In this document: positions 29,891-30,963 of the stretch, one piece after another
Numbering within the stretch: position 1 is the first letter of the stretch
Layout of the letters: each line of letters opens with the position of its first letter
Source of the DNA: Methanocaldococcus jannaschii DSM 2661
GTDB taxonomy: Archaea > AGJL01 > Methanococci > Methanococcales > Methanocaldococcaceae
Reading direction: 5' to 3'
DNA: 32,000 nucleotides
Assembly: GCF_000091665.1 (NCBI RefSeq)
Contig: NC_000909.1
Span: 212,871 to 244,870, forward strand
The notes under the pieces: generated by a model
What the model was told of the DNA's origin: nothing
Databases searched by the model: none
What the model saw: only the letters and a program-made list of their open reading frames with translations
Translations under genes and position numbers: made by a program

Positions 29891-30826
29891 ATGATTCCAG
29901 AAGAAATTTATAAAATTTTAAGAAAGCAGAGGTATCAAATAGACGGCCACACAGCCGTTAAGTTGTGTGGATGGGTTAGAAAAAAGATGTTAGAGGATAA
30001 AAATTGCTATAAATCAAAATTCTATGGTATTGAAACACACAGATGTATTCAATGCACACCATCAGTTATTTGGTGTCAGCAAAATTGTATATTCTGCTGG
30101 AGAGTTTTACCAAGGGATATAGGTATAGATATAAGCCAAATTAAAGAACCAAAATGGGAAGAGCCAGAGGTTGTATATGAGAAAATTTTAGCCATGCATA
30201 AAAGAATAATTATGGGTTATGCTGGAGTGTTAGATAGAGTTGGAGAGAAGAAATTTAAAGAGGCTTTAGAGCCAAAGCATGTGGCAATATCTTTATCAGG
30301 AGAGCCAACACTTTATCCATACTTAGATGAGTTAATAAAGATATTCCATAAGAATGGATTTACAACATTTGTTGTTTCAAATGGAATCTTAACTGATGTT
30401 ATTGAAAAAATAGAGCCAACTCAACTGTATATCTCATTAGATGCCTATGATTTGGACAGTTATAGAAGAATATGTGGGGGGAAGAAAGAGTATTGGGAAA
30501 GTATCTTAAATACCTTAGACATTTTAAAAGAGAAGAAGAGAACTTGTATAAGAACTACTTTAATTAGGGGCTATAATGATGATATCTTAAAGTTTGTAGA
30601 GCTCTATGAAAGAGCTGATGTCCATTTCATTGAGTTAAAGTCATATATGCACGTTGGTTATTCTCAAAAAAGATTAAAGAAAGAGGACATGCTACAACAT
30701 GATGAGATATTAAAATTAGCTAAGATGTTAGATGAAAACAGCTCATACAAATTAATTGATGACAGTGAAGATAGTAGAGTGGCGTTATTGCAAAATGAAA
30801 ATAGGAAAATCAACCCGAAACTTTAA
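29891..30826 (+). CDS. taw1: tRNA wyosine-derivative biosynthesis radical-SAM enzyme Taw1 (TYW1 homolog)
   Basis: 311 aa. It has the radical-SAM cluster motif CQQNCIFC, upstream auxiliary-cluster cysteines, and the SLSGEPTLYP motif. Confidence 0.88.
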   Translation: MIPEEIYKILRKQRYQIDGHTAVKLCGWVRKKMLEDKNCYKSKFYGIETHRCIQCTPSVIWCQQNCIFCWRVLPRDIGIDISQIKEPKWEEPEVVYEKILAMHKRIIMGYAGVLDRVGEKKFKEALEPKHVAISLSGEPTLYPYLDELIKIFHKNGFTTFVVSNGILTDVIEKIEPTQLYISLDAYDLDSYRRICGGKKEYWESILNTLDILKEKKRTCIRTTLIRGYNDDILKFVELYERADVHFIELKSYMHVGYSQKRLKKEDMLQHDEILKLAKMLDENSSYKLIDDSEDSRVALLQNENRKINPKL

Positions 30827-30904
30827 TAAAGTTTCATCAAAGCTAACATCTCTGCCAAAGGCAGAGGTGTAAATGGGGTATCCCAATAGGGCGAAGCCCT
30901 ATGG
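30827..30904 (+). repeat. GC-rich two-hairpin element, copy B (immediately 3' of the taw1 stop)
   Basis: Hairpin 1 spans 30846-30870, with core CTCTGCC-AAA-GGCAGAG. The 18-nt core TGGGGTATCCCAATAGGG is at 30874-30891. Hairpin 2 spans 30883-30904: CC-A-ATAGGGC-GAA-GCCCTAT-GG. Confidence 0.75.
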
Positions 30905-30949
30905 TTGTAAAATGAAAATAGAAAGATAAATCCAAAGATTTTTGAATAA
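30905..30949 (+). pseudogene. Displaced in-frame relic of the taw1 3' end
   Basis: It reads L-stop-NENRKINPKIFE-stop, against the live end LQNENRKINPKL-stop. The offset is 117 nt with no gaps. Six third-position synonymous differences are present, plus CAA to TAA. Confidence 0.7.
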
Positions 30950-30963
30950 TTATTCTATAGTGG

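Follow-up and report, generated by a model that had tools for sequence, protein, structure and literature searches.

The taw1 and comE loci

We analyzed a stretch of 32,000 nt from the chromosome of Methanocaldococcus jannaschii DSM 2661 (contig NC_000909.1, positions 212,871 to 244,870; hereafter the window, whose own numbering is used throughout), in which two neighboring genes, comE and taw1, are each followed by a hairpin-rich repeat element and then by a second copy of the gene's own 3′ end. We denote the live gene end by H′, the element by E, and the part of the downstream copy (the relic) that matches H′ by H″; coordinates are collected in Table 1. The live taw1 end at 30788-30826 reads TTG CAA AAT GAA AAT AGG AAA ATC AAC CCG AAA CTT TAA, and the copy at 30905-30949 reads TTG TAA AAT GAA AAT AGA AAG ATA AAT CCA AAG ATT TTT GAA TAA, so that sequences and coordinates in the initial annotation were right. 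A repeat search of the window recovered the ungapped 117-nt offset reported there, and the six consecutive silent third-position differences were verified.

The tails CTT TAA TAA and ATT TTT GAA TAA had been taken to be linked by a 3-nt indel. This is probably wrong, since the live tail belongs to the element: G AAA CTT TAA TAA AGTTTC at the live end forms the element's palindrome GAAACTTTA-A-TAAAGTTTC, the left arm of which reaches into the reading frame and provides Lys-Leu-stop; the likeness of the two tails is thus most likely incidental. The native tail, A AAG ATT TTT GAA TAA, is kept in the relic. Twelve Taw1 proteins of the same 90% cluster (M. fervens, FS406-22, M. bathoardescens, M. 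lauensis, strain 28A and several metagenomic sequences) end in ...NENRKINPKIFE(E/N), and the NPKL end is found in M. jannaschii alone. The relic encodes L-stop-NENRKINPKIFE-stop, i.e. the ancestral tail with one nonsense change (CAA to TAA at 30908).

The comE pair (29699-29736 and 29816-29853) has an offset of likewise 117 nt. Both inserts in the window are thus exactly 117 nt long though H (38 vs 29 nt) and E (79 vs 88 nt) differ between comE and taw1, which is unexplained.

Allelic origin of the gene-end copies

The pair at taw1 had been interpreted as two diverged alleles standing side by side rather than as a duplication made in place that then decayed, and comparison of both copies with the 3′ ends of relatives bears this out, the live copy being closest to M. 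bathoardescens and the relic closest to strain 28A. Over 29 nt, H′ differs by 1 nt from M. bathoardescens and by 5 nt from 28A, and H″ is 2 nt away from 28A (TTG/TTA and the CAA/TAA nonsense change) and 4 nt from M. bathoardescens. The T-tract past the relic is identical to that of 28A, and the 200 nt of taw1 before H′ are 92% identical to 28A and FS406-22 and 87.5% identical to M. bathoardescens. From these allele identities, the order along the chromosome is a host-type taw1 body, a foreign-type H′, the element, a host-type relic and host-type downstream DNA. The 45-nt relic is most likely the former 3′ end of taw1 itself. Element-free sites matching both window inserts are present in L005, M. 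fervens, FS406-22, M. lauensis and 28A, and the taw1 insert is missing in M. bathoardescens. The structure seen at taw1 and comE was found again in an independent metagenome-assembled genome (MAG) and in several metagenome assemblies (L006-L011).

As a separate observation, the predicted fold closes the whole taw1 insert by a 5-bp helix, CAACC/GGTTG (30811-30815 with 30901-30905), one strand of which lies in the live end and the other across the junction of element and relic; this may be chance.

At comE, H′ (YRFMEAIKRS-stop) is identical between M. jannaschii and M. fervens at 43/43 nt, and the preceding 60 nt are ~80% identical. The sequence past the comE relic aligns with the FS406-22 intergenic region. 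The comE H′ of M. bathoardescens is nearly identical to that of M. jannaschii and stands before a larger element, and the M. bathoardescens relic is of the FS406-22 type (...IKKN-stop), forming a pair with nonsynonymous differences. M. fervens comE (L013 9940-10010) has the travelling end allele, yet without an element or relic; either the allele stems from this lineage or the site is a product of clean loss.

The hycI gene provides a third case. Here the unit of H′ and E, from ATGATTTTAGAGGAG... through the element to ...CCCTATGGATAGA, is ~99% identical between the metagenome lineage L015 and M. bathoardescens, whereas the gene itself is 68-90% identical and the sequence just upstream of the block 68-88%. 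The relics diverge (GAG GAG ATA AAT AAA TAG vs GAA GAA ATT AAA AGA TAA), as does the intergenic DNA, and each relic resembles alleles of element-free relatives. Being ~99% identical amid diverged flanks, the block is a discrete mobile unit, and the allele patterns at hycI and comE cannot be produced by a duplication made in place. The live tails NPKL-stop (taw1) and EEIKSK[A/V]-stop (hycI) occur only with the element and never in element-free genomes.

Table 1. Features of the comE and taw1 loci, in window coordinates
Feature	Position	Strand	Basis or remark
comE-like gene (sulfopyruvate decarboxylase beta, TPP_enzyme_C), upstream of taw1	29165..29731	+	Open reading frame (ORF); Pfam label from identical gene in L006
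comE live end H′, travelling allele TAT CGA TTT ATG GAA GCG ATA AAA AGG AGT TAA	29699..29736	+	Repeat search
Hairpin element E1: hairpin ATTAATTGGGGC-TGAAA-GCCCCAACTTAAT, then terminal module TGGGGTATCCCAATAGGGGGTTTCCCCCTATGG	29737..29812	+	~72-nt core recurs in metagenome contigs
comE relic H″: TAT AGA TTT ATG GAA GCG ATA AAA AGG AGC CAA ... TAA	29813..29869	+	Runs on into native DNA before taw1
taw1 (TYW1, MJ0257), 311 aa	29891..30826	+	ORF; identical to AAB98244.1 / WP_010869754.1
taw1 live end H′, 29 nt, probable M. bathoardescens-type imported allele	30788..30816	+	1 difference from M. bathoardescens, 5 from 28A, 5 from relic
Hairpin element E2, 88 nt	30817..30904	+	Recurring modules; RNA fold z = -7.0, DNA -7.3; without Rfam family
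E2 palindrome GAAACTTTA-A-TAAAGTTTC, source of codons K, L, stop	30817-30835		
E2 hairpin	30846-30870		
E2 terminal module TGGGGTATCCCAATAGGGCGAAGCCCTATGG	30874-30904		
taw1 relic, displaced native end	30905..30949	+	First 29 nt (H″) match H′; rest native tail; nucleotides closest to strain 28A
Native downstream DNA: T-rich tract, then 3′ end of convergent minus-strand cfbE-like gene	30950..30980	.	TTATTTTATTTTTTCTCTAAGAATAAC identical to 28A; cfbE annotation taken from counterpart loci L006 (M. jannaschii MAG) and L012 (M. bathoardescens)

Recurrence at other gene ends

That the mechanism is recurrent, as had been suggested from taw1 and comE, agrees with our survey: the same layout was found at further loci in M. 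bathoardescens, M. fervens, FS406-22 and metagenomes, and the architecture is now known from >15 loci. When all ORF ends in the window (>=80 aa) were scanned for a downstream copy, taw1 and comE scored 28 and 17 against a background of <=14, the CRISPR array being left out. Gene-end pairs were found in M. bathoardescens at hycI, comE, porB and a ferredoxin gene, in M. fervens at radB (offset 100, TAA/TGA included), in a Methanocaldococcus MAG (L001) at rimI (offset 160, with ACG/ACT and TTG/CTG), once in FS406-22 (offset 114), and on metagenome contigs at hycI and another gene. An offset of about +117 is therefore not a constant, the values lying between 100 and 305 nt. M. vulcanius, M. lauensis and strain 28A lack such relics in their 21-kb taw1 regions, which is unexplained.

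Ten gene-end pairs together show 31 synonymous and 14 nonsynonymous codon differences (69% synonymous), and 36/56 nucleotide differences fall at third positions. Random placement of the same number of changes gives 16% synonymous differences, and a value of 69% was never met in 20,000 trials (P < 5e-5). The changes include Leu CTA/TTG, Arg CGA/AGA and stop TAA/TGA; in the porB pair, IQRYIDEKCKLLGL-stop is encoded twice with six differing codons, three of which are Leu codon-family switches. This synonymous excess over random placement upholds the earlier view that both copies evolved as coding sequence.

Structure and copies of the element

Both window inserts end in an identical 18-mer, TGGGGTATCCCAATAGGG, and then a hairpin that closes with ...CCCTATGG (2 matches vs 0.04 expected). 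The taw1 element E2 folds into four hairpins (RNA -43.4 kcal/mol, z = -7.0; DNA z = -7.3). Its module GAAACTTTA-A-TAAAGTTTC followed by ...CATCAAA recurs elsewhere, and at the comD end of M. bathoardescens it gives a TGA stop. In hairpin 1 the loop TGAAA is constant and the stem covaries (GGGGC/GCCCC, GCCCC/GGGGC, GCTCC/GGAGC); since the loop is kept while the stem covaries, the hairpin structure of one strand is under selection. The terminal module is present in 32 distinct copies in ~220 kb of Methanocaldococcus DNA. Element termini read ...CCCTATGG, ...AAAGTTTC or ...AAAGGTTC. The inserts are 70-260 nt long and non-coding, and their ends fall at hairpin bases, which fits element termini that are defined by structure.

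Full versions were observed in M. bathoardescens, where two near-identical ~260-nt multi-hairpin elements lie 870 nt apart (L012, 18915-19180 and 19785-20040), each with its own diverged gene-end duplication (ferredoxin gene and porB). These ~260-nt versions hold a complete palindrome, GGGGTATCC..CCATAGGGC-TTCG-GCCCTATTGGTATACCCC, of which the M. jannaschii copies hold the left part only.

The element corresponds to no known RNA family and does not resemble an intrinsic terminator, as Rfam gave no match to it at the gathering score or at E<=1 and a terminator scan gave nothing at the elements, no hairpin followed by a T-run being present. A weak CATAG...CTATGG symmetry occurs in one subfamily, and a check for terminal inverted repeats revealed no parent insertion sequence. 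Among GTDB species genomes, apparently without the window's own genome, the exact 18-mer was found at one archaeal locus only. Plasmid and phage collections gave no blastn match to a 270-nt element, and pattern matches in viral contigs were to an unrelated gene, the elements being absent from the viral collection.

Targets beyond gene 3′ ends

The proposal that gene 3′ ends are targeted is too narrow, since CRISPR repeats, transfer RNA (tRNA) 3′ ends and one gene 5′ end are also hit. A metagenome scan for the terminal hairpin returned 33 loci, six of which resemble chance matches to DNA that is unrelated. Within CRISPR repeats, the ~72-nt core of the comE element occurs in the arrangement GTTAAAATCAGACC | TCYTGRAGGTTAARG...E...CCCTATGG | AA(A/T)TCAGACCGTTTCGGTATGGAAAT, where the left copy is of a degenerate-repeat type, the right one is the standard repeat, and ~10 nt are in common (AAATCAGACC). 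At tRNA-Arg and tRNA-Ile, the same core lies 10 nt past the gene, and part of the tRNA 3′ end is repeated in degenerate form on its far side. At the 5′ end of one gene, a 50-nt duplication spans the ribosome-binding site and 11 codons. An element in L028 (oriented ~2450-2522) is in frame within a 1237-aa ORF (...QRRGIAERSEAMHPGYTNRGFPPMEF...) with no clear flanking duplication; elements can thus presumably be translated as parts of proteins.

For ~19 of ~37 ...CCCTATGG termini, a copy of the left-adjacent sequence starts within 0-3 nt (score >=17), as compared to 0.5% of random positions with such a flanking copy. The flanking duplications are 10-51 nt long and diverged. One rule fits all cases, namely that, when the element is read from its variable end towards ...CCCTATGG, the left flank is joined to a carried H′ and the resident H″ stays with the right flank. 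H′ is near-synonymous where function is needed, at gene ends, and degenerate at tRNA and CRISPR sites.

Several further features of these loci were noted. The window itself contains a CRISPR array at 23694-25314 with 26 repeats (Rfam CRISPR-DR13, ATTAAAATCAGACCGTTTCGGAATGGAAAC), the last two or three of which score lower and are degenerate. In the metagenome contigs L026 and L036, a ~105-nt classical MITE, a miniature transposable element, with perfect 16-nt terminal inverted repeats, TAACCAATTATCAAAG...CTTTGATAATTGGTTA, sits within a hairpin-element copy, ~100 nt left of its CCCTATGG end, and the host copy is itself in a CRISPR repeat. One element copy occurs with differing flanks in L035, L038 and L041 (X-E-tRNA-Ile, X-E-Y and tRNA-fragment-E-tRNA-Ile), which suggests that element copies may be sites of ectopic recombination or rearrangement.

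Proposed mechanism

We class the event recorded at these loci as the displacement of a gene end by an integrating element, here a miniature cassette with a hairpin repeat. We consider it likely that at taw1 a foreign 117-nt cassette inserted in the gene end and displaced the native end as a dead copy. The cassette would have consisted of H′ (29 nt, the last taw1 codons of another Methanocaldococcus lineage) fused to E (an 88-nt hairpin-rich palindromic repeat), and it would have entered where the gene is homologous to the beginning of the cassette's first 29 nt. taw1 would then read via the imported H′ into the element, where the first palindrome arm would give Lys-Leu-stop, while the resident end and downstream DNA would have moved 117 nt down, untranslated and decaying (CAA to TAA). 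Sequence comparison shows the block structure, the allelic identity, the presence/absence polymorphism, the multi-locus architecture and, at hycI, the horizontal sharing of exactly H′ and E.

The right junction of the insertion is precise and no resident sequence was lost. On inspection, no consistent junction microhomology was seen between the DNA upstream of H′ and the ...TATGG end of the element. The short homology H presumably addresses the insertion. One route could be a single crossover of the Campbell type with a small circular or concatemeric molecule of H and E, which could come from recombination between H′ and H″ at the donor locus. Alternatively, a strand invasion with H′ as its one-sided anchor could lead to ligation of E as a hairpin-protected, Fen1-resistant flap, or a template switch that leaves and returns at a single point could give the same product. 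Under either route, duplication lengths would vary (10-51 nt seen) and a fixed target motif would be absent. Survival would be limited to insertions whose carried copy leaves the gene intact, which would explain why gene-end pairs are mostly synonymous and why tRNA and CRISPR copies are free to degenerate.

A more general view, which we put forward tentatively and regard as somewhat doubtful, is that the elements form the core of 'self-addressed' miniature mobile cassettes with a new, homology-addressed mode of mobility. Each element would carry, at its variable end, a copy of its next integration neighbor and would insert by homology by way of a small intermediate, circular or single-stranded, whose processing would take place at the ...CCCTATGG hairpin end, with no need of a sequence-specific integrase site. 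As the carried copy would replace the displaced end, essential genes, tRNA flanks and CRISPR repeats could be invaded harmlessly, and the cassettes could hop between species at orthologous sites.

A number of points weigh against cassette insertion at taw1 and its extension to other loci. How an element gains the H′ of a new gene is unexplained, as is the fact that the left end of E lies 0-5 nt from the stop codon in all 8 gene-3′-end cases. At ~117 bp, a circle of double-stranded DNA would be under steric strain. We found neither a recombinase or transposase nor a circular form, and plasmid, phage and viral collections lack the elements. The allele assignment at taw1 depends on just 29-45 nt, and for radB and porB neither copy is, by our own count, clearly nearer to the orthologs at hand. 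Similar products, the sharp left edge at hycI excepted, could come from ordinary homologous recombination with an H′-E-H″ donor; in its two-sided form such recombination could also spread the locus.

Alternative explanations

The pairs might instead result from transposition with a long target-site duplication that was identical at first, the live copy having been kept synonymous by selection while the relic drifted. The duplication does flank the element exactly, and some pairs are near-identical (1-2 differences/26 nt at hycI of L015, 3-4/50 nt in L039, 3/38 nt at comE). But duplications of 10-51 nt are unlike a fixed stagger, and a neutral relic should change at all codon positions, which is not what the 69% of synonymous codon differences indicate. 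Nor does this explanation agree with a taw1 relic that matches the 28A allele next to a live copy that matches the M. bathoardescens allele, with the ~99% identity of the hycI block between lineages whose relics and flanks differ, or with H′ and H″ in CRISPR arrays being different repeat types beyond 10 nt. Transposition followed by divergence in place is disfavored for taw1, hycI and M. bathoardescens comE and seems an unlikely explanation overall, although a transposition-like step may still be needed to found each new locus. We would give an equally small chance to the converse of cassette insertion, in which the live copy is native and the relic side foreign, brought in by a homologous-recombination tract from an element-free relative that was halted at the element by heterology. 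Such a tract would leave differences clustered in the stop-proximal part of H and the element-proximal part nearly identical, as observed, and would be in line with radB and porB, where neither copy is clearly native. However, the taw1 body is of the 28A/FS406-22 type like the relic and not of the M. bathoardescens type like H′, the NPKL-stop and EEIKSK[A/V]-stop tails accompany only the element, and at hycI the side common to the lineages is H′.

A guide-directed homing process, in which the element would be a small-RNA scaffold and H″ the guide for a nuclease cutting element-free alleles, with the recoded live copy being immune, is in our opinion very improbable. It would account for H″ beginning exactly at the conserved structured end of the element, for selection on the hairpin structure, and for the element's presence within CRISPR repeats, the 3′ part of which resembles ...CCCTATGG|AAAT. 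Many pairs are also mismatched, by our own count, in the first 3-6 nt of H, but such early mismatches are not above what overall divergence predicts (~62% expected, ~71% seen), so that immunity by 'seed mismatch' was rejected. Homing by repair would in addition leave no relic; the element has no Rfam match, the ends of the TnpB insertion sequence are unrelated, and no associated nuclease gene was seen. Chance likeness in AT-rich intergenic DNA, or an assembly artefact, is hardly conceivable: nothing but the low complexity of the region speaks for it, and against it are ORF-end scores far above the window background, the independent MAG and metagenome assemblies, and the >15 loci.

Some specific candidates were also rejected. 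The taw1 differences (C/T, G/A, A/G, C/A, C/T, G/A, A/G, C/A) are not adenine-specific, as a diversity-generating retroelement would require, and no reverse transcriptase ORF lies nearby. If the in-frame 117 nt (39 codons) were removed like an intron, taw1 would be joined to a relic with TAA as its second codon; no search for bulge-helix-bulge or splice signals was made. An origin from TnpB/omega-RNA systems or from IS200/IS605 palindrome-associated transposable elements is not supported either, because the sole TnpB insertion sequence found (L038) has unrelated ends and the elements are flanked by duplications. Spacer-type integration by Cas1-Cas2 (~30-nt repeat-unit duplication, ~35-40-nt insert) does not correspond to CRISPR cases that share ~10 nt around an insert of ~90 nt, and duplication length varies elsewhere. 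The L038 insertion sequence itself (3490-4773) encodes a TnpB-type protein of 427 aa (IS605 OrfB-like, zinc-ribbon) and has short inverted ends, ATGGACATTT / AAATGTCCAT.

Relation to known elements and implications

The hairpin repeats are, we presume, very probably the MJRE elements of M. jannaschii; to our knowledge, the MJRE report contains no flanking diverged duplication or allelic gene-end origin. Our elements resemble MJRE in being GC-rich, palindromic, hairpin-forming, multi-copy and extragenic, with a four-hairpin fold of z ~ -7 and, in L028, a copy in frame within an ORF. MJRE1-3 are reportedly (from Suyama, Lathe and Bork 2005, FEBS Lett 579:5281) palindromic, multi-copy, GC-rich extragenic elements, some of which are in-frame in coding regions. 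The 2005 paper is cited in PMC2229807. The literature that we searched gave no description of a flanking allelic duplication. In a 2025 survey, M. bathoardescens and M. vulcanius are among the archaeal examples in a table of palindrome counts (PMC12306157).

Like MITEs, repetitive extragenic palindromic sequences (REPs), their bacterial interspersed mosaic elements (BIMEs) and Rickettsia palindromic elements, these are small non-coding hairpin repeats that lie mostly just past genes and occasionally in frame in ORFs, have a modular mosaic structure and are substrates for ectopic recombination. MITEs were nevertheless rejected as their identity, since MITEs, which have terminal inverted repeats, make a fixed, identical, short target-site duplication, unlike the diverged duplications of 10-51 nt seen here, which represent different natural alleles with no linked transposase. 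REPs, for their part, make no duplication and depend on RAYT (REP-associated tyrosine) transposases. Integron cassettes and cis-mobilizable elements are also small units mobilized in trans with a folded hairpin as the likely recognized structure, and an integron-like circular intermediate with one copy of an attachment (att) site would yield exactly H′-E-H″; here, in contrast, there is no integrase, attI or conserved crossover triplet, and the 'att' would be whatever target copy the unit carries.

The closest parallels for the displacement itself come from larger elements. In Escherichia coli, icd reads into prophage e14 and the displaced C-terminal pseudogene icdC is found at the opposite side; between the two gene ends, most differences are synonymous (H366H, T370T, L375L), and they are recombined upon excision (PMC13626634). 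As with e14 (and phage 21), taw1, comE and hycI have an element-borne substitute 3′ end and a displaced native 3′ end. e14, however, is a prophage of 15 kb that brings its own integrase and uses one fixed att site, as opposed to non-coding elements of 70-260 nt with dozens of unrelated targets; in contrast to att elements of that type, taw1, comE, hycI, radB, porB, tRNA-Arg, tRNA-Ile and CRISPR repeats have unrelated sequences, and each target is matched by an element-carried copy. At rhs, contact-dependent inhibition (CDI) and type VI secretion system (T6SS) loci, 'C-terminal displacement' has been ascribed to homology-facilitated illegitimate recombination (PMC5361080, citing Jackson et al. 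2009). There too, homology-anchored incoming DNA replaces a functional 3′ end and the old end is orphaned downstream, but kilobase toxin/immunity modules with new functions are swapped and the join is illegitimate and variable, whereas here the imported end encodes an essentially unchanged peptide, a hairpin repeat is carried as cargo, and the join on the right is precise, the homology starting at once after ...CCCTATGG.

If cassette insertion is true, it would be a sequence-level mechanism by which tiny non-coding repeats spread among hyperthermophilic archaea without disrupting compact genomes, and it would account for turnover of C-terminal tails, stop codons and 3′ untranslated regions in housekeeping genes, as in Taw1 (...IFE to ...L), HycI (...K to ...SKA) and ComD (last residue lost). 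'C-terminal displacement', of which prophages and toxin loci have been the known cases until now, would then also operate at the 100-nt scale in ordinary genes, tRNAs and CRISPR repeats. Relics would be dated molecular fossils of the recipient allele, live copies would name the donor lineage, and the element family could serve to trace DNA flow between species in vent populations. For annotation, short ORF-like copies of gene ends past genes should then be regarded as relics, and the last codons of a gene may be element-derived.

Finally, aIF2/IF-2 carries an intein (Intein_splicing, LAGLIDADG) in the M. jannaschii MAG (L006 9717-13184), FS406-22 (L014 15298-18765) and 28A (L050 14358-17516), and is without intein in M. 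bathoardescens (L012 15428-17257).

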